The notes beneath the pieces were generated by a model, which was given only the letters and a program-made list of their open reading frames with translations, made no database searches and was not told where the DNA came from. A stretch of 32,521 bases of DNA from a virus: positions 1 to 32,521 of the IMG/VR virus record IMGVR_UViG_3300045988_012636. The stretch is one strand, 5' to 3'. The position numbers and the translations under genes are program-made. This document shows positions 24,112 through 31,257 of this stretch, piece after piece. Position 1 is the first letter of the stretch. The number at the start of each line of letters is the position of its first letter.

Positions 24112-24252
24112 TTAATGTTCTGTACTCCATAGTAGCACGATGCGGTACGTGTCCAAACCTTTGCAGTTCGGGCACTTCAATGTGACCATCGTGTCGCGGG
24201 TGCAGGATCCTAGGTAGCGTCCGCAACGTTTGCAATGGATGTCATACGTCAT
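24112..24252 (-). CDS. Com-like zinc-ribbon protein (46 aa)
   Basis: Hand translation: MTYDIHCKRCGRYLGSCTRDTMVTLKCPNCKGLDTYRIVLLWSTEH, with two CxxC pairs arranged as in Mu Com. Its ATG (24252-24250) overlaps the portal TGA as ATGA. Confidence 0.6.
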   Translation of the reverse strand: MTYDIHCKRCGRYLGSCTRDTMVTLKCPNCKGLDTYRIVLLWSTEH

Positions 24253-26342
24253 GATTCGTCCTCCACTACTTCGTAGTCTTCGTAGCACCGGCAGTTGGGG
24301 TGTCCGTTCGGTGTTTGCATACTCTCGAAGTTGTTCACGTAGGTGCGCTCGCCGATTTCGACGCTGGCGTTCTCCGCCATATACGTGTCATCCAATGCGA
24401 TTCGCTTGCCTTCCATATGACGGCAGAACTCGCACACTTTGCCATCACCGGAAGTACGCCACACCTTGTCCAGTCGGACGCCGAGCGTCTCACTGAGATT
24501 GCGGGCGCTGTACAAGCTGCCGAGCCGTTGCGATTGCACCGTCTCGCATCGGGCAATCAGTTCGGCGTGATTATTACCCATACGTTCGAGCGCTTCGCGC
24601 AAGTGTTCGGCGTCCCACTGTTCCACGTCGGCACGGTTCAACAGTTCGAGCACGTCGTTCGTAATGGTCTTGCTGGTGGACTTGGCGATGCTACGCAAGT
24701 GTCCCACGTAGGCTTCACGCACGGTGTCGGGGAGTTCCGCCCAGAAGTAGAGTTGCCTCCAATCATCGGCGGTGTATCCCTCGACCTGCACGGCAATGGA
24801 GCTTTCCGGATGGACTTCAGCCCACATGGTAATGACCTGTTCCAGCTCGTAGCCGGTACGGCGGGCGTAGGCGGCGAGGTTCTTCATCAACTCGTCTTCC
24901 ACGTCGTTTATCCACTGGTCGCCGATATCCTCCAGATCGTCACGTAATCCGTTCTGGGAGCGGCGGGCCATGCGGATGATTCTGTCCACGTAGGTTCGCG
25001 TGGCTGGGAGGATACGGGTTTCGGTTGCCGTTTCCTGCGGTTTGATATTCCTCGCATATCGTTTCGCGGCTATTGGGATAGTCAGCGTCGGAGCCTGCTG
25101 GTGCAAGTCAAGACGCTTGTACGAGTCTGGGAGTCCGAGAGCGTCCACGGCAGATTCCAGACTGGCCCCCATGTTCACAAGCTGGGTCAGCGAGTCGATA
25201 CGTACCTTCTGTGTGTCGGCCTGCACCTTCTCTACGTCGGTTTGGGACGGCAGGTTGAGATCGAACGTGATGCCGTAGCCGAGTCCTCCGGTGATGCGGT
25301 CTAGCTCGAACTGCCATTTATCCCACACCGTCATACACAACGGTTTCAGCGTGTTTTCAATGAACGCGCGTTCCGCCTGTTCGGCGTTGGCATAGGTCTG
25401 ACCGTTATCGATACCTCGAATAATGTCCGGGACTGCCAGAGCGTTCGACAATCGGTTGTTAACCACGTCGTTCACGGTCTGCAAGTCCAGACTGTCGTTG
25501 GCGTTCTGGAACGGCACCCACACCAGCTTGCTGGTGGTGCTGGGCTTATGGGTCATGGGGTCAACCGGGATCATGTTGTAGACGATTCCGTTGTTGTTCC
25601 CAGCCCCTCGGAACGTGCTTTCCAACCGGTCGCGGTTGCGTTGAAAGTCCTCAGTGTTCTCCGACACGATGCCGAGCATTCCAGCGGGCACGGCGTTATT
25701 GCCGAAGAAACCACGCTCATAGTCGGCAATCATATCGTCAACATTCGCCCACTTCTTCACCGTCATTGCCGGTGCAATGCCCCGAGTGGGATCGTTCGGG
25801 TGCTGCGAGTAGCTGAGGGCGATGGTTTCATCACGGGAGAATTCGTAGACTCGTTCGCCATCACCCAAGTCCATAGTGACGCGATGGTACCAGTCGGAGC
25901 GTGTGGAATTGTATTGGCGGCTGTTCGACGGTAGTAGCGTATAGCCGATGATGTTGTCGGCTGTAATGTCTCCGCCCGGCCCGTTAGATGTCCAGATCAG
26001 AACATCCAAGTGGGATTGAGTGAGGATACTGGCGGAGATGAGTTTCAGGAATTCGAGGCAGCTATAGGTGTCGTTGGGCGCGTAGAGTGCGGCCAACGGT
26101 GCGGGAGCCGGGTCGATACGCCTGTTCTCCGCGTCCACGGCATAGGGGATTACCGTGCTGAACCGTTGGGCGATGGCGTTCACATAAGGGAACACGTTGT
26201 CGTAAGTATCATGCAGTGGGATGGTGTTGCCGCCCATTGGCTGCCAGATGTTCCCGCCCATCGGTGTGGGGGACATGCTGGGCGCATGGTTACGGTCGAA
26301 CGCGCTCATAAAACCTTCACGGAGATTGTTCAGCAGGCTCAC
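24249..26342 (-). CDS. Portal protein fused to a MuF/SPP1 gp7-like head morphogenesis domain
   Basis: 697 aa. The C-terminus ...KVCEFCRHMEGKRIALDDTYM...NGHPNCRCYEDY is the Phage_Mu_F signature. The N-terminal ~450 aa are portal-sized and directly follow terL. Starts with GTG. Confidence 0.8.
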   Translation of the reverse strand: MSLLNNLREGFMSAFDRNHAPSMSPTPMGGNIWQPMGGNTIPLHDTYDNVFPYVNAIAQRFSTVIPYAVDAENRRIDPAPAPLAALYAPNDTYSCLEFLKLISASILTQSHLDVLIWTSNGPGGDITADNIIGYTLLPSNSRQYNSTRSDWYHRVTMDLGDGERVYEFSRDETIALSYSQHPNDPTRGIAPAMTVKKWANVDDMIADYERGFFGNNAVPAGMLGIVSENTEDFQRNRDRLESTFRGAGNNNGIVYNMIPVDPMTHKPSTTSKLVWVPFQNANDSLDLQTVNDVVNNRLSNALAVPDIIRGIDNGQTYANAEQAERAFIENTLKPLCMTVWDKWQFELDRITGGLGYGITFDLNLPSQTDVEKVQADTQKVRIDSLTQLVNMGASLESAVDALGLPDSYKRLDLHQQAPTLTIPIAAKRYARNIKPQETATETRILPATRTYVDRIIRMARRSQNGLRDDLEDIGDQWINDVEDELMKNLAAYARRTGYELEQVITMWAEVHPESSIAVQVEGYTADDWRQLYFWAELPDTVREAYVGHLRSIAKSTSKTITNDVLELLNRADVEQWDAEHLREALERMGNNHAELIARCETVQSQRLGSLYSARNLSETLGVRLDKVWRTSGDGKVCEFCRHMEGKRIALDDTYMAENASVEIGERTYVNNFESMQTPNGHPNCRCYEDYEVVEDES

Positions 26343-26400: not shown

Positions 26401-27660
26401 CTAGCAGACAGCGACATCCCAAGATGGCAGCTTCGGAGGTTCATAGCAGGCAAGCAATACGGCGTCCGCTAGATCGGGGCTGCCCAAGTTCTCCCGGTCT
26501 TTGTAATCCTGCTTGCTTTCGATCTGACGTTGGTTCCTGCTGGTGATTTTCCACCGTCGCGTGGTCAGTTCGTTTGAAAGTTTGGCGAAGTCCTCAAGAT
26601 TAGGGTTGATGCTCAATGATGGCAGCATGGTAGCGAAGTCGAACCATAGTTCGCTGGCAATATTCGGATACTGCTGGTCTTTCGCCTTACCAGCGTAGTT
26701 GATGGCGTCAACGGGCAGGCCGTTTACCTTGAGCAGGTCTGTCAAGCCTCCGCCCACGCCGGTATCGTCCACGCGGATGGCGACTGGCTTGTACTGGGAG
26801 GCCCGGAGTTTGATGCGTTCCGCAGTGTCCACGATACTGCTGTGCGTCCACGACTCCAGAATGCTGATTCGGTTGCCTTGTTTGATGCAGAGCGCTGTGC
26901 GGTCGTTGCCGTATCGGGCCACGTCCACGCCGAACGTCACGAGCCCGGTCAATGGTTCGCGTTGGACGGCTTCCCCTATCATGGTGTCGCTGATTAGCTG
27001 GTTATCGGTGTCGGAGTACGGTAAGCCTAGCCATATGTGCGCGTAGTCGGCGGATTGCTGGTCGGCGTGGATCATGTCCAGCACGTCTTGACTTAACAGT
27101 CTGCGAATATCGTTGTAGGTGGTGTGCCAGTGGCATGTCTGGCAGCGGCGTTCCTCCGAGTCGCCCGTGATGAAGTACGTCCATACTGGATCATGCGAAG
27201 TGAGCGGGTTCCAAGTGAAGATAAGAGTACTGTTGGGGCGGCGTATCGTCGGGATGAGAGTGGTCAAGCTTTCCTTGCTGATGGTCTGCGCTTCCTCAAC
27301 CCAACACACGTCCACGCCCTCGATACTCTTGATCGATTGCAGATTATTGTGCAAGCCACGGAAGATGAACATGCTGCCGTTGATATGGCGGATTGCGTCG
27401 CGCGTGACCTCGAAGCCCTTCACGCCGAACGATTCGATAGTGTCGGCCAGCAGCTTATACACGGAGTCGGTGATACTGTTCTGGAATTCTCGGGCGCACA
27501 ATACCGTGATGGGTTGGGTGGCGGCGCGAAGTATGAGACTCTGCGCCACGCTCGTACTCTTGCCCGAAGCTCGTCCACCGGAATAGCAGTAATACCGGTA
27601 TGGTGGCGTCTCTGAGTGGAGCCACCACCATAAGTCCCGGTACGGTTTAGCTATCTTCAT
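26401..27660 (-). CDS. terL: Terminase large subunit (PBSX/Terminase_3 type)
   Basis: Walker A YSGGRASGKST, Walker B-like VDVCWVEEA, and a C-terminal nuclease region. Confidence 0.9.
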   Translation of the reverse strand: MKIAKPYRDLWWWLHSETPPYRYYCYSGGRASGKSTSVAQSLILRAATQPITVLCAREFQNSITDSVYKLLADTIESFGVKGFEVTRDAIRHINGSMFIFRGLHNNLQSIKSIEGVDVCWVEEAQTISKESLTTLIPTIRRPNSTLIFTWNPLTSHDPVWTYFITGDSEERRCQTCHWHTTYNDIRRLLSQDVLDMIHADQQSADYAHIWLGLPYSDTDNQLISDTMIGEAVQREPLTGLVTFGVDVARYGNDRTALCIKQGNRISILESWTHSSIVDTAERIKLRASQYKPVAIRVDDTGVGGGLTDLLKVNGLPVDAINYAGKAKDQQYPNIASELWFDFATMLPSLSINPNLEDFAKLSNELTTRRWKITSRNQRQIESKQDYKDRENLGSPDLADAVLLACYEPPKLPSWDVAVC

Positions 27661-27666
27661 ACTCTC

Positions 27667-28299
27667 TTAGTCTAGAGTCTTCGCCCATGCGATGACGTGG
27701 CGAGTAATCAGCGGGAACACGATGACTTCTACGACGATCTTAAGCGCGTATGTGAGGATGATATTCTGCAAATTTGCCATGATGCTGTAGGAGACTCCAT
27801 ACATCAAGAGCGTGACTACGATGGTATCCACCAAGCCTCCTGCGATGGTGGACAGGATGCAACGAGTGAACAAACCACGTTCTCCCATATGGTCATGCAT
27901 TCGGCTCATGATCAAATCGTTGGTGAGCGTGCCGAGGAAGAACGCAGCCATAGACGCTACGACCATCCACGGAGCAAGAGTGAATATCGAGTCGAACGCG
28001 CTTTCCAACGTGAATTCTGGGGCGGCTGGGACTATGGCCACTATGCTGAGTAGAAGCACGGCGTAGATGTTGCACGCCATCGCCAGCAAGCGTAAGCGTA
28101 GCGCTTTCTTGAACCCGTAGACTTCCGCTGCCATATCACTCGCCACATAGTCAACTACGATTGTGATAATGCCTCCGCCAAGCGTAAGACCGAAGAAGCT
28201 TTCCGTTTTGATGGCGCTCAGGTTGGCGGTAATCAAGCTGGCGGCGCTGAGGGCGCAGAGGACAGCGTACAGGTTTTGCTTGTTGATTCGTTTGACCAT
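27667..28299 (-). CDS. yhhQ: YhhQ/DUF165-family queuosine-precursor (preQ0/preQ1) transporter
   Basis: Polytopic membrane protein with the family pattern: ..SLITANLSAIK.., ..SDMAAEVYGFKKA.., ..ASMAAFFLGTLTNDLIMSRM.., ..LFTRCILSTIAGGLVDTIVVTLLMYG... Confidence 0.8.
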   Translation of the reverse strand: MVKRINKQNLYAVLCALSAASLITANLSAIKTESFFGLTLGGGIITIVVDYVASDMAAEVYGFKKALRLRLLAMACNIYAVLLLSIVAIVPAAPEFTLESAFDSIFTLAPWMVVASMAAFFLGTLTNDLIMSRMHDHMGERGLFTRCILSTIAGGLVDTIVVTLLMYGVSYSIMANLQNIILTYALKIVVEVIVFPLITRHVIAWAKTLD

Positions 28300-28316
28300 T
28301 TTTTTCAGTTCCTTCG

Positions 28317-28568
28317 TTAGAGGGGAGGATGGTTATGAACTCCCATTCGCGCCCATTTTACCTCGTAGTGTCGTTGCATCCGAATCAGGTCGTCGTAGCA
28401 GGCAATGAGTAAATCACTCCGGTTAGTGCGGGTCTGTTCTCGGCTTACCTTGCGCCCTTTGTAAGTCCCGTAGATGGTAGGCGTCTTCCACGATGCGCTG
28501 TCCACGCTGTCGAATGGAACCTTGTCCAGCACTTTTTCCGCGTCATGCCGAGGCAGTGCAGCCAGCAA
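28317..28568 (-). CDS. dpdA: DpdA-like DNA 7-deazaguanine transglycosylase, C-terminal fragment (frame -1 relative to the N-terminal part)
   Basis: Contains ..KVLDKVPFDSVDSASWKTP.., matching the conserved DS-x-x-W end of TGT/DpdA barrels. It has no independent RBS and its frame opens right after a TGA at 28569-28571. Confidence 0.7.
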   Translation of the reverse strand: MLAALPRHDAEKVLDKVPFDSVDSASWKTPTIYGTYKGRKVSREQTRTNRSDLLIACYDDLIRMQRHYEVKWARMGVHNHPPL

Positions 28569-29071
28569 TCATTCTTCCAAGCTTCCTTCAAGAAAATCAG
28601 ATACTGGTAGTCTTGAATGTCTTCGTTCTGGAACCCGGTGACGGCGGCTATCTGGTGTTCGCTGACCATTCGGTGATAGTCTTCGATTCCACGATTGCGA
28701 TGCCATACCGGAATGATCTTGTCCGCGTGCCCTGATTCGCGTTCCAAGATGCGTCGCAGCTTCAACACGTTTTCGTAGCCGATAATGTTGTCCACGTCCA
28801 TCTCGAAATAGCCTCGGATGCGTGGCGTATCGTTTTCGCGTATCCATTTGGCATAGTCGTGCGTGTACTGCTCCCAATCGACGTGTACACCTTTCTGGAA
28901 GCTGTGAGCGCCACTATCTATGATCGAATCTGCTACTAAGTGAATATCGAATTTGCTTTTACGCAAGTAGAAGTATGAACACAGCAAGTGTTGGAGCTTA
29001 CCCTTATTGCTGAGCAGCTTTATAATATCGTCGGGTATTCCGGTTTCGAATGCGCTACCATAAATAATCAT
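28445..29071 (-). CDS. dpdA: DpdA-like DNA 7-deazaguanine transglycosylase (TGT family), N-terminal fragment
   Basis: MIIYGSAFE.., ..SIIDSGAHSF.., ..IPVWHRN.. and ..CWLHCLGMT.. resemble DpdA/TGT barrel motifs. After the A5 run (28537-28533) the translation degenerates (RKKCWTRFHSTAWTAHRGRR..). Confidence 0.7.
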   Translation of the reverse strand: MIIYGSAFETGIPDDIIKLLSNKGKLQHLLCSYFYLRKSKFDIHLVADSIIDSGAHSFQKGVHVDWEQYTHDYAKWIRENDTPRIRGYFEMDVDNIIGYENVLKLRRILERESGHADKIIPVWHRNRGIEDYHRMVSEHQIAAVTGFQNEDIQDYQYLIFLKEAWKNDCWLHCLGMTRKKCWTRFHSTAWTAHRGRRLPSTGLTKGAR

Positions 29072-29592
29072 CAGTCAGCTTTCGTGAAGTGTTCTTTTCG
29101 GTCGATGTGCCCGCAGGATGGGCATTTCAGCATTACGTGTTCCGGCTCGTCGTATTCGTCTTCAGTTAAGTCTGGTACGTCTTGAAAATCGATTTGTGGT
29201 AGGTCGAACCCGTAATAGTCCATGTCGAAGTCAGCAGTGAGGTCTTCCAGTTCCACACCGAGCATATCCGCGTCCCAACCAGTGTTCATGGTGAGCTGGT
29301 TGTGAATGAGGGTGTAGGCTCGGCGTTGCGAGTCGGTCAGATCATCAAGACAAATGACCGGGCATTCCTCGATATTGAGTTTCTGCAAGGCGAGTACCCT
29401 GCCGTGGCCCTCAACAATGACCGGCGTACCATCCTTGTCATGCCAGACAGCCACCGGATCGTTCATACCGAACTCACGGATACTTGCAGCGATCTGTGCC
29501 ACCTGCTCGTCGGGATGCTGTTTCGCGTTCCGAGCATAGGGAATCAGGTCACTGGTCTTCATGGTTTGGACTTGCAAACGTGGTTTACTCAT
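29071..29592 (-). CDS. ParB N-terminal-domain (ParB-like nuclease/NTPase) protein
   Basis: KTSDLIPYARNAKQHPDEQVAQIAASIREFGMNDPVAV...VEGHGRVLALQKL is the ParBc pattern. It has an acidic C-terminal region with one CxxC. It is coupled to terS (TAATG) and to dpdA (TGATG). Confidence 0.8.
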   Translation of the reverse strand: MSKPRLQVQTMKTSDLIPYARNAKQHPDEQVAQIAASIREFGMNDPVAVWHDKDGTPVIVEGHGRVLALQKLNIEECPVICLDDLTDSQRRAYTLIHNQLTMNTGWDADMLGVELEDLTADFDMDYYGFDLPQIDFQDVPDLTEDEYDEPEHVMLKCPSCGHIDRKEHFTKAD

Positions 29593-29981: not shown

Positions 29982-30044
29982 AAGAGGTTATTTTATGCTT
30001 TCTTGGGTTTAGTTTGTTGTTGTTGGTTGATGGGGCATGATGGT

Positions 30045-30203
30045 TTAGGCGAGGATGTAGGTTATGAGGAGTTTGAGTAGGGCTATGGTGCCGGTGGTGA
30101 TGAGGAGTACGGTTAGGGTGATGAGTAGTATGCCGAGGATGCGGCCTAGCTTGTAGCCGGGTGTGGTGTTACGGAAGTAGTCGAATTCGCTTGGTTTCTT
30201 CAT
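30045..30203 (-). CDS. Small membrane protein (52 aa)
   Basis: MKKPSEFDYFRNTTPGYKLGRILGILLITLTVLLITTGTIALLKLLITYILA. It overlaps the rusA stop as ATGA. Confidence 0.55.
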   Translation of the reverse strand: MKKPSEFDYFRNTTPGYKLGRILGILLITLTVLLITTGTIALLKLLITYILA

Positions 30204-30649
30204 TGGTTTGGTTTCCATGTGATTGTGAGGAATACGCCGGTGGGGGTGTCGTCGGCGTATCGTTTGTGGCTGGTTACGTCGGTGATCTGACAGTCGTCGT
30301 GCCAGATGTGGGTTTCGGTGATGGCGTCGTATAGGGCGCGTTGGAGTTTGTCGATGTCTGGTTTGACGGTTGGGTGTTTGCGTTTTCTTGGTGGGATGGT
30401 TTTGGGGCGTGGGAGGTAGAACGTTGTTTCTACGGTCACGTATGAGTCGTGGGGAATGGTTGGGTGTTCGTGGCTGAGGATGGTGTCGCGTACATGGTCG
30501 CGCCACGGGCGTTCTTTTTTGTCCATTGGTATGAGACGGGTTACTGGTTTACCGGTGGTGCGGCTCCTGCCGGTGATTGGCCGGTAGGAGCCTTTACTTG
30601 CGGGTATGCCGGGAACGAACAGGCTGAATGAGTATGGTTCGCCGGTCAT
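30200..30649 (-). CDS. rusA: RusA-family Holliday junction resolvase
   Basis: ..FVPGIPASKGS.., ..TFYLPRPK.. and ..KPDIDKLQRALYDAITETHIWHDDCQI.. match RusA motifs. Its ATG at 30649 overlaps the upstream stop. Confidence 0.8.
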   Translation of the reverse strand: MTGEPYSFSLFVPGIPASKGSYRPITGRSRTTGKPVTRLIPMDKKERPWRDHVRDTILSHEHPTIPHDSYVTVETTFYLPRPKTIPPRKRKHPTVKPDIDKLQRALYDAITETHIWHDDCQITDVTSHKRYADDTPTGVFLTITWKPNQ

Positions 30650-31257
30650 TGGTTGACCTCCGCCAGATCGAATGTCGGTTGCGTTTCCGCCTTGAGTTTG
30701 AGCGTGCGCAGGATGTCGGCACGGTTGCTTTGATGCTTGTAGGCTAGTTGGTCTTGGCCGACGTATTTGAATCGTTGCCCGCAATTGTGGCAGAAGAGCG
30801 GGTCTGGGTTGTTCTTGTAGATTTCGAGAATTCGCTTGTAGTATTCTGCGTCGTTTTCTGCTTGTCCGTTGATGTAGCGTTGTGTGGTGTCTGGCCAGAT
30901 CAACGCTCCGCAACGTGGGCAGTATGAGACGGGTGGGATGCCGTCCACTGGTTTAGGACTGGCGGTGATGAACTTCATGGGCGTCCAGAAGTCTTCGGTT
31001 TTGCTGAGCATGTCCCGGTAGGTTTTCACGAAGCCTATGAGGTCGAATGATTCAGCGGTGAGATAGCGTTCGATGATGTCGAATTCTTCCATGCTGTTGA
31101 CGAATGCGTGTCGTTCCAGCAGGTAGAGCAGGGCGACCGGGATACTGTTGAGTTCGTTCGCGTCCTCGTAGTCATAGAGGGTTATGGTGGTGTCTTCGCG
31201 GTCGTCCTCGGGACAGTCCTGCCAAACTTTGACGTAGGCACGTTTCGTGAATTTCAT
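30646..31257 (-). CDS. Hypothetical protein with C-terminal zinc ribbon (CPRC...CHNC)
   Basis: 203-aa ORF containing two CxxC pairs. Confidence 0.6.
   Translation of the reverse strand: MKFTKRAYVKVWQDCPEDDREDTTITLYDYEDANELNSIPVALLYLLERHAFVNSMEEFDIIERYLTAESFDLIGFVKTYRDMLSKTEDFWTPMKFITASPKPVDGIPPVSYCPRCGALIWPDTTQRYINGQAENDAEYYKRILEIYKNNPDPLFCHNCGQRFKYVGQDQLAYKHQSNRADILRTLKLKAETQPTFDLAEVNQ

Follow-up and report, generated by a model that had tools for sequence, protein, structure and literature searches.

The viral record IMGVR_UViG_3300045988_012636 of IMG/VR, analysed here over its whole length of 32,521 bases (the window), carries between its terminase genes three genes that encode a small protein with a ParB-type N-domain, a transglycosylase-like enzyme of the DpdA type and a queuosine-precursor transporter of the YhhQ type. 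We consider it likely that these genes form an accessory three-part DNA-modification cassette, seated at the junction between the putative small terminase gene (terS) and the large one (terL), and that its DpdA copy, broken in this phage by a deletion of one nucleotide, is probably inactive or leaky. The architecture of the cassette is conserved across a large clade, largely from gut and rumen metagenomes, and the terS|terL position is a hot spot of insertion and deletion at which the cassette is both optional and swappable.

Gene identities within the cassette

On the minus strand the order terS, ParB_N protein, DpdA-like gene in two frames, YhhQ and terL is tightly spaced (Table 1). The stop codon of terS overlaps the start codon of the ParB gene as TAATG, the stop of the latter overlaps the start of the DpdA-like gene as TGATG, and gaps of 17 nt and 6 nt separate DpdA from YhhQ and YhhQ from terL, respectively. 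This agrees with the initial annotation, made from the sequence alone, which had described three co-oriented and coupled open reading frames (ORFs) between the small and large terminase genes.

Table 1. Positions of the cassette genes, of motifs within them and of the flanking terminase genes in the window.
Feature	Position	Strand	Evidence or remark
Large terminase subunit terL, 419 aa	26401..27660	-	Terminase_3 E 6.9e-38, phrog_3717 E 1.8e-50; right flank of the slot
Swappable segment comprising the tail of ParB (from ~residue 138), DpdA and YhhQ	27661..29178	-	Replaced or deleted in sister phages
YhhQ/QPTR (COG1738) queuosine-precursor transporter, 210 aa, polytopic	27667..28299	-	Pfam Vut_1 and TIGR00697
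DpdA-like gene, 3' part, -1 frame, encoding VLDKVPFDSVDSASW... up to the stop (ORF 28317-28568)	28317..28541	-	Joined to the 5' part gives 251 aa
Frame break, A5 run in cgGAAAAAGtg where relatives have AAGAAA	28533..28537	-	1-nt deletion by comparison with relatives
DpdA-like gene, 5' part, frame A, 208-aa ORF ending at a premature stop	28445..29071	-	phrog_887 E 1.9e-25
ParB_N (ParB/Srx-fold) protein, 173 aa, first gene of the cassette	29071..29592	-	Pfam, PHROG, PADLOC, Foldseek
ParB C-terminal tail CPSCGHIDRKEH (C157, C160, H162, H168), possible small zinc-binding beta-hairpin	29089..29124	-	Motif and AlphaFold2 model
GHGRVLA, residues 62-68 of ParB, fits the GxxRxxA nucleotide-binding motif of ParB-type NTPases	29389..29409	-	Conservation
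Putative small terminase subunit terS, 129 aa	29592..29981	-	Position only; left flank of the slot

The family matched by the 208-residue ORF, phrog_887, bears the name 'queuine tRNA-ribosyltransferase'. Once the frame is restored, the protein of 251 amino acids is 93% identical over its full length to the intact database protein P0001, and the motifs IDSGAHSF, WLHCLGMT and PFDSVDSASW are all found in it. Its AlphaFold2 (AF2) model, with a predicted local distance difference test score (pLDDT) of 91.2 and a predicted template modelling score (pTM) of 0.89, consists of alternating strands and helices forming a (β/α)8 TIM barrel. Alignment by hhalign of a profile of 54 DpdA sequences of this clade with the DpdA of Escherichia phage CAjan gave a probability of 97.4% (E 1.2e-11, 179 columns), pairing DSGAHSF with DSGAFS of CAjan and DSASW (DSSSW in the clade consensus) with DSSSW of CAjan; furthermore, phmmer with CAjan DpdA recovers 81/86 loci. 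A Foldseek search of BFVD with the model returned many phage models called 'queuine tRNA-ribosyltransferase', for example that of Arthrobacter phage Mufasa8 (E 1.6e-10, TM 0.67). Within the clade the aspartates D92, D94, D188 and D191 are invariant and D52 is nearly so. We regard D52 (DSGAHSF), D92/D94 (EMDVDN) and D188/D191 (FDSVDS, a motif that is out of frame in the window) as candidate active-site residues. Such conservation would fit an active site like that of tRNA-guanine transglycosylase (TGT) and DpdA, where three aspartates are invariant and act as general acid/base, in base recognition and as nucleophile (PMC10164549).

Several results weigh against this assignment. The 251-residue sequence does not contain the structural zinc site CxCx2Cx22H that TGT and bacterial DpdA have, the only conserved Cys and His residues of the clade being C169, H172 and C173. 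Pfam TGT (PF01702) was matched by 0/54 clade members, none of the ~1,200 relatives of the enzyme carries a Pfam domain, and the window enzyme matches no NCBIfam or PADLOC model. Sequence searches of the PDB with the DpdA profile and with CAjan DpdA gave nothing at E <= 10, and Foldseek against the PDB gave generic TIM barrels only, neither a TGT nor a DpdA being among the first 50 hits. A TGT-specific fold, for which this last search gave no ground, is not claimed. Membership of the DpdA family is carried by profile-profile and predicted-structure links to phage DpdAs. Taking the failed links to solved structures together with the CAjan profile match and the matches to phage DpdA models, we place the enzyme within the superfamily of phage DpdAs, as a minimal and divergent member nearest to the DpdA1 type. 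The TGT/DpdA-like barrel of the initial annotation was thus borne out by PHROG, by the CAjan profile and by structural models from phages, and not by Pfam TGT, NCBIfam, PADLOC or PDB structures.

The ParB_N protein was identified by Pfam (ParB_N, E 2.5e-6) and PHROG (phrog_620, E 1.6e-47), and a further match is to the N-terminal part of fusions between ParB and methyltransferases (phrog_498, E 9.8e-44; PADLOC MTase_II, E 1.1e-32). In its AF2 model (pLDDT 85.1) residues 8-100 superpose on the cytidine triphosphate-binding N-domains of ParB and Noc. The Foldseek matches include Noc 7NFU (E 3.2e-7), ParB 6SDK and 7BNR with a root-mean-square deviation of 2.1-2.2 Å over ~98 residues, pNOB8 ParB, Atu1540 and sulfiredoxin, with PadC and KorB lower in the list. 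Residues E61, G62, H63, G64, R65 and A68 are invariant in 52 homologues, and this conservation suggests that the protein may bind a nucleoside triphosphate (NTP). The N-domain is followed by one helix, by a stretch without regular secondary structure and by a short β-hairpin (154-156/163-165; mean pLDDT 83-91 in 10-residue blocks covering residues 141-170), and this tail may bind a metal, possibly zinc.

A comparison with the bacterial partner protein DpdB was less favourable. No DndB or DpdB model of NCBIfam or PADLOC matched the protein at E <= 1, the best matches being generic ParB models along with the N-terminal part of MTase_II, and it reaches 31 bits against TIGR00180, whose cut-off is 58.45. 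The motif reads EGHGR, not DGQQR or DGQHR, and the helical SspE-like C-domain of DpdB, which forms a DNA-encircling dimer, is absent from the 173 residues. The helix-turn-helix and C-terminal dimerisation domains of partition ParBs are absent as well, the N-domain alone being aligned (~98/173 residues). The protein combines an N-domain of generic ParB type with a C-terminal tail rich in Cys and His, and it is not a member of the DpdB family.

The last gene of the cassette matches Pfam Vut_1 with E 1.5e-32 (113.5 bits, cut-off 27.2) and the equivalog TIGR00697, 'queuosine precursor transporter', with 84.7 bits (curated cut-off 50.95), which confirms the YhhQ/DUF165-type transporter of the initial annotation; the overlapping windows of a 19-residue hydropathy scan were read as about six hydrophobic stretches. 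The absence of precursor biosynthesis genes was confirmed too. When the remainder of the genome was scanned with Pfam in 45 ORF segments, none of the FolE, QueD, QueE, QueC, QueF and amidotransferase families was found, and phmmer with FolE, QueD, QueE and QueC of CAjan gave nothing at E <= 1e-3 among the six-frame ORFs of the window. Neither a preQ1 riboswitch nor a tRNA was found in the window.

The frame break in the DpdA-like gene

At the break the window reads CGGAAAAAGTG, with five A residues. Seven relatives whose junctions were read (L001-L004 and L148-L150) have AAGAAA at the same spot, in CG[GC]AAGAAAGTG, and encode intact proteins of 245-251 amino acids. Among these, L148-L150 have a ParB identical to that of the window, a nucleotide identity of 94.4-94.7%, the junction CGGAAGAAAGTG and an intact DpdA of 251 residues. 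A DpdA of the window type is in one frame in all nine relatives that have it, including the seven with junction DNA read. In view of these intact genes we conclude that the window lacks one base. The initial annotation had taken the product of 28317-29071 as 'frame-corrected'; the joined homologue of 251 residues is valid, but the real break in the gene, a deletion of one nucleotide relative to relatives, had been overlooked.

The truncated product of 208 residues keeps the aspartates of IDSGAHSF and EMDVDN and loses those of FDSVDS via the frameshift. Because the break precedes the FDSVDS aspartates, and thus cuts off the predicted nucleophile, this product would be inactive. The window copy of DpdA is probably inactive therefore, or leaky by rare -1 slippage on G_AAA_AAG, and consequently this particular phage may not modify its own DNA at all. 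The frameshift fits the decay of the cassette that is seen in relatives.

That the cassette is fully functional in the window phage is a possibility that we take seriously, although we hold it to be unlikely. The gap could be an assembly or consensus error, and the exact truncated product is not on record in other assemblies; the 55-bp overlap of the window ends, however, suggests that short reads were assembled by k-mers, and indel errors of a single base would be uncommon in such an assembly. As a second route to a working enzyme, -1 slippage on G_AAA_AAG might yield enough full-length DpdA. A -1 slip after CGG AAA AAG gives ...GMTRKKVLDKVPFD..., which is the exact sequence of intact homologues, and the site contains AAA_AAG, the slippery lysine pair of dnaX-type sites. 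Furthermore, the 3' part of DpdA is still open throughout, and both YhhQ and ParB are intact. Against slippage, the site is G_AAA_AAG and not A_AAA_AAG, no stimulatory structure was found downstream (the RNA fold is unremarkable, z = +0.41, and the hairpin begins without a spacer) and frameshifting is not conserved, DpdA being in a single frame in all nine relatives. For these three reasons programmed frameshifting was rejected as the principal explanation. The same cassette is, moreover, visibly decaying in relatives, and we retain the reading of a broken, probably inactive or leaky copy.

Distribution, exchange and proposed function of the cassette

In order to describe the clade we collected 99 loci with this type of DpdA, from DpdA profile searches of IMG/VR and of a one-genome-per-species collection and from contigs encoding individual homologues; a supply gene was counted if it lay within 5 kb of DpdA, where it is usually just downstream. 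A ParB-like ORF lies immediately upstream of DpdA on the same strand in 93/99 loci, and a supply gene lies near DpdA in 92/99. The supply gene is YhhQ in 56 loci and QueT (PF06177, E 4.8e-31) in 28, which gives 84/99 with a transporter only, while FolE, QueD, QueE and QueC are present together in 8; no supply gene was found in 7 loci, several of them on short or truncated contigs. Thus salvage-only is the commonest form of the three-part cassette, and the proposal of the initial annotation, a salvaged precursor with an importer carried by the phage, is supported. The preference for importers would be explained by the gut Bacillota and Actinomycetota, in which QueDECF are mostly missing and which live on salvaged queuosine (Q) precursors (PMC11130926). 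Since some loci carry the preQ0 synthesis set, they argue for the use of a preQ0-type base by the clade.

The cassette occurs in phages and prophages, or in contigs, assigned to Clostridia, Lachnospiraceae, Lactobacillus, Megasphaera and Methanobrevibacter, on varied phage backbones. In the Bacteroidota loci DpdA lies beside a Que cluster, with a weak ParB match in some loci only. Among the contigs binned to methanogens, two from Methanobrevibacter metagenome-assembled genomes (MAGs; L096, L098) and one from Methanomicrobiales (L097) carry the ParB-DpdA-YhhQ cassette, L097 with the different gene order YhhQ, DpdA, ParB. In L032 (9959-11200; also in L038, L040, L042, L045 and L051) DpdA and a QueT domain (PF06177, 4.8e-31) share one stretch of 413 amino acids with no stop between them, representing either a genuine fusion of enzyme and transporter or two genes that overlap in frame. 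Two decayed versions were also met with: an in-frame ParB(12-74)::DpdA(50-end) deletion fusion in L064 (9695-10591), in which DSG is changed to DFG, and a ParB split over two frames in L087 (7390-7912), a Gordonibacter MAG contig.

DpdA-linked ParBs mostly end in ...EPxxxML.CPxC[GH]H.D....HFKKV. The CPxC tail is present in 88/98 ParBs of DpdA loci (68/77 DpdA-linked ParBs after dereplication at 90% identity) and is absent from the ParBs of sister phages that are linked to a GNAT protein or to a TET-associated glycosyltransferase (TAGT). A Fisher test of the tail against DpdA linkage gave p = 0.002, a weak result with four independent non-DpdA tail types and one DpdA-linked locus miscounted as unlinked. 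Strict specificity of the tail for DpdA is weakened by Mycobacterium phage Typha, whose DpdA-linked ParB has no such tail, and by Fusobacterium phage phiFN37, in which a second ParB paralogue has the tail without an adjacent DpdA. The latter phage (L146, 6715-7203) has at least three annotated ParB-like genes; two end in CPxCGG, and one of these two adjoins DpdA.

The content of the terS|terL slot was compared in 53 relatives in which both genes were found, with terL at least 79% identical in all but L205 and L206. The slot is empty in 39/53, with terS and terL 9-72 nt apart, a number that includes the distant L205 and L206, which hold ~2 kb of unrelated sequence; ParB is absent from all 39. 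ParB with an ATPase/GNAT pair occupies the slot in 11, ParB with a divergent DpdA and YhhQ in 2, and a deletion remnant in 1. Homology between the window and L116 ends at 29179, inside ParB (~residue 138), and resumes at 27660, the start codon of terL. In the sister phages, in which terS shows ~90% nucleotide conservation, ParB is 90-96% identical over residues 1 to ~140 and then has a different tail, followed by a gene other than DpdA of the window type: a TAGT (PF20691, E 5.2e-28), a P-loop ATPase and GNAT pair (phrog_11143), or a very divergent DpdA with YhhQ. As homology breaks inside ParB and resumes only at terL, the ParB tail travels with the enzyme.

Deletions are equally evident. L144 and L155, close relatives with an 'empty' slot, retain 13-55 nt of the 5' end of ParB and 14-55 nt of the 3' end of YhhQ, scars which identify them as deletions of this very cassette. 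In L143 codon 61 of ParB is fused to the tail of YhhQ, and L005 has lost 735 bp (27842-28576), comprising the 3' end of DpdA and the 5' end of YhhQ; an 11-bp overlap of the alignment blocks suggests that the latter deletion arose via microhomology. Instead of a ParB cassette, the slot of L205 and L206 holds an ORF that by eye resembles the phosphoesterase type. In L116 (4531-5241 and 5322-5642; the same slot in L117-L128, L153, L157 and others) the P-loop ATPase and the GNAT acetyltransferase that follow ParB match phrog_11143 together and may represent an uncharacterised ParB-led nucleic-acid acylation cassette. In L135 (4004-5615; also L133-L141) a ParB of 255 residues with a long, different tail precedes the glycosyltransferase (PF20691, 5.2e-28), which also matches phrog_842, 'beta-glucosyl-HMC-alpha-glucosyltransferase'.

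We propose that in an intact cassette the minimal DpdA-family TIM barrel would exchange guanine in phage DNA for a 7-deazaguanine base, that the small ParB-fold protein would bind DNA and nucleotide and help the enzyme on double-stranded DNA, as the ATPase DpdB does for bacterial DpdA, and that the YhhQ/QPTR importer would bring in preQ0, preQ1 or a related base from the environment. Import rather than synthesis would be expected because the phage has no synthesis genes and its likely gut Gram-positive hosts are usually without them too. The expected benefit would be protection of the phage DNA from restriction. The initial annotation had seen in the ParB-like protein a miniature DpdB-like partner, and this view stands at the level of function, where a partner or adaptor role resembling that of DpdB fits the upstream position in nearly all loci, the absence of ParB where the cassette is absent and the overlap of Foldseek matches with those of DpdB; it fails at the level of family membership, given the EGHGR motif, the lack of the C-domain, the lack of a model match and the use of the same N-domain with other enzymes in sister phages.

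Some points count against parts of this proposal. The specificity of QPTR transporters differs among members (preQ0/preQ1 or queuine; PMC11130926), and for this reason the base imported by YhhQ is uncertain. When expressed by itself in E. coli, the DpdA of phage 9g inserted dPreQ0 into plasmid DNA (PMC6884629), so a partner is not a general requirement. The tails of Typha and phiFN37 described above are caveats to an adaptor role, and the same ParB N-domain accompanies unrelated enzymes, so that its role may be generic rather than DpdB-like.

An action of the DpdA-like enzyme and YhhQ on tRNA and host queuosine metabolism, as an auxiliary module boosting Q-tRNA during infection and not acting on DNA, appears improbable to us. 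The enzyme does belong to the TGT superfamily, databases do call its relatives 'queuine tRNA-ribosyltransferase', YhhQ is an importer of Q precursors, and it has been noted that phages lacking DpdA, yet having Q-pathway genes, might increase the production of Q precursor (Hutinet 2019, PMC6884629). However, the nearest tested relative is CAjan DpdA, whose deletion abolishes dPreQ0 in phage DNA (PMC7544227). The window enzyme is also devoid of the TGT zinc subdomain and of a Pfam TGT match, its invariant neighbour has a ParB fold, typical of DNA-binding proteins, and the slot of sister phages holds DNA-modifying enzymes such as the TAGT. Very improbable indeed is a ParB-like gene that serves as a packaging or partition accessory of the terminase genes (pac-site binding or genome segregation) and is unrelated to DpdA: ParB-like genes are common beside phage terminase genes, and this one sits between terS and terL, overlaps the stop codon of terS and bears the PHROG label 'ParB-like partition protein', but 39/53 close relatives package with adjoining terS and terL and no ParB, deletion variants lose ParB together with the enzyme, ParB stays beside DpdA across different phage backbones, terminase types and prophages of several phyla, and the protein matches the N-domain of partition ParB only, without its helix-turn-helix and dimerisation domains.

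ParB is clearly not needed for packaging. As the slot is mostly empty and unstable, the position of a DNA-modification cassette within it gives no evidence for a coupling to packaging, which the initial annotation had read from the placement; the cassette sits just upstream of the terminase genes in the two further lineages that were examined. Late co-transcription of the cassette with the terminase genes would be plausible.

The ends of the window share an identical overlap of 55 bp, and the window is therefore a closed genome of ~32.47 kb, as had been stated. Its gene content is siphovirus-like, and we take it as a gut siphovirus of roughly 32.5 kb. The Pfam scan found a portal with a fused Mu-F-like domain, a major capsid protein of lactococcal type, a tape measure protein, an endolysin with Amidase_2 and two LysM domains, ERF, YqaJ, SSB and RusA; the endolysin suggests a Gram-positive host. 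The terS gene, without a match in Pfam, PHROG or NCBIfam, is named by position alone. The ~3000 relatives of terL are all on uncultured contigs of about 30 kb, and megablast of the module against GenBank phages gave no match. Phage_portal and the Mu-F-like head morphogenesis domain share one ORF of 697 residues (24249-26342, minus strand) and are two separate genes in the distantly related phage L087. The region 30001-31000 has a strongly skewed strand composition (GC skew +0.38, AT skew -0.38) and includes RusA as well as a P/R/H/T-rich ORF that overlaps it (30045-30506, minus strand), just upstream of terS.

Implications and comparison with known systems

Modification of DNA by 7-deazaguanines is a known phage route to evade restriction. 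The present clade suggests that the usual gut version of it imports the base via YhhQ or QueT instead of making it, which would tie the chemistry of phage DNA to the queuosine precursors shared by the community, over which bacteria and the host compete as well. The near-invariant ParB-like protein is a testable candidate for the means by which a minimal DpdA gains access to duplex DNA, and a role as partner would give a function to many phage genes annotated 'ParB-like'. Since closely similar phages swap or lose the cassette at one junction, the state of DNA modification is not inferable from phage taxonomy, which matters for choosing or engineering phages and for reading sequencing signals. 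In a genome such as this one a cassette may be present and yet dead.

It has already been published that some DpdA-only phages have YhhQ and that a ParB-superfamily ORF next to DpdA may be a DpdB homologue. Hutinet et al. (2019) proposed that 76 DpdA-only phages rely on a precursor made by the host or imported, YhhQ being present in some phages (PMC6884629), and ORF1 of Mycobacterium phage CRB2, which belongs to the ParB superfamily, 'could encode a dpdB homolog' (PMC6392294). For the near-obligate ParB-DpdA-supply architecture, the bias towards importers, the enzyme-specific ParB tail and the exchange of the cassette at one junction, no published description was found within the searchable literature.

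The phage DpdA1 systems (Escherichia phages 9g and CAjan, Mycobacterium phage Rosebush) resemble the window in that its enzyme is a homologue of their TIM-barrel DNA guanine transglycosylases, and the hhalign match to CAjan was given above. Some of these phages resemble it further in having YhhQ, which in CAjan is part of the cluster and is dispensable (PMC7544227). CAjan DpdA has 306 residues whereas the window enzyme has 251, with ~27% identity by tblastn. In contrast to phage DpdA1, the enzyme of the window clade nearly always has a ParB_N gene upstream and then a transporter instead of synthesis genes, and it escapes Pfam; the window protein matches no NCBIfam or PADLOC model. Hutinet et al. 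reported 'no correlation' of YhhQ with any phage group (PMC6884629), whereas this clade is transporter-only in 84/99 loci. Among annotated isolates, phiFN37 (OR492271) has a gene order like that of the window, with a ParB-like gene, then DpdA and, after a hypothetical gene, a 'queosine precursor transporter'. In Typha a ParB-like gp1 and DpdA gp3 are followed by QueD/QueE/FolE, the group being upstream of the terminase (gp9) by a few genes, and its ParB, unlike that of the window, has no CPxC tail. The DpdAs of phiFN37, Typha and CRB2 are only 28-33% identical to that of the window.

The bacterial Dpd system resembles the cassette in that a TGT-like transglycosylase is paired with a ParB-fold protein, DpdA acting with DpdB (and DpdC), and DpdB's activity as an ATPase is required for the insertion of preQ0 by DpdA (PMC10164549). 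The Foldseek matches of the window ParB include each of the five structures to which DpdB is reported to be closest (Noc 7NFU, PadC, pNOB8 ParB, Atu1540 and sulfiredoxin; PMC10164549). Bacterial DpdB, however, has a DGQQR motif and an SspE-like helical C-domain and forms a dimer of 80-95 kDa, whereas the window ParB has EGHGR and 173 residues with no such C-domain. Bacterial DpdA has the CxCx2Cx22H zinc site and DpdA-specific insertions, both of which are missing from the window DpdA, and the window is also without DpdC and restriction components.

As a speculative and rather doubtful generalisation, small ParB_N proteins might act as DNA-loading subunits, general and exchangeable, for those phage enzymes by which DNA is modified after replication. 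The conserved NTP-binding N-domain would engage DNA and a short enzyme-specific tail would recruit the partner (DpdA, TAGT glycosyltransferase, ATPase/GNAT, or methyltransferases as fusions); for minimal DpdAs the Cys/His-rich tail might supply the missing structural zinc element in trans, and recombination inside the ParB gene would allow near-identical phages to exchange DNA chemistry as one cassette. ParBc domains are often fused to DNA methyltransferases and adjoin CmoX, their role being unknown (PMC12783734). The window ParB matches the N-terminal region of such ParB-methyltransferase fusions but stands alone, and unlike in the fusions, the C-terminal tail of the stand-alone ParB varies with the neighbouring enzyme, be it DpdA, TAGT or ATPase/GNAT.

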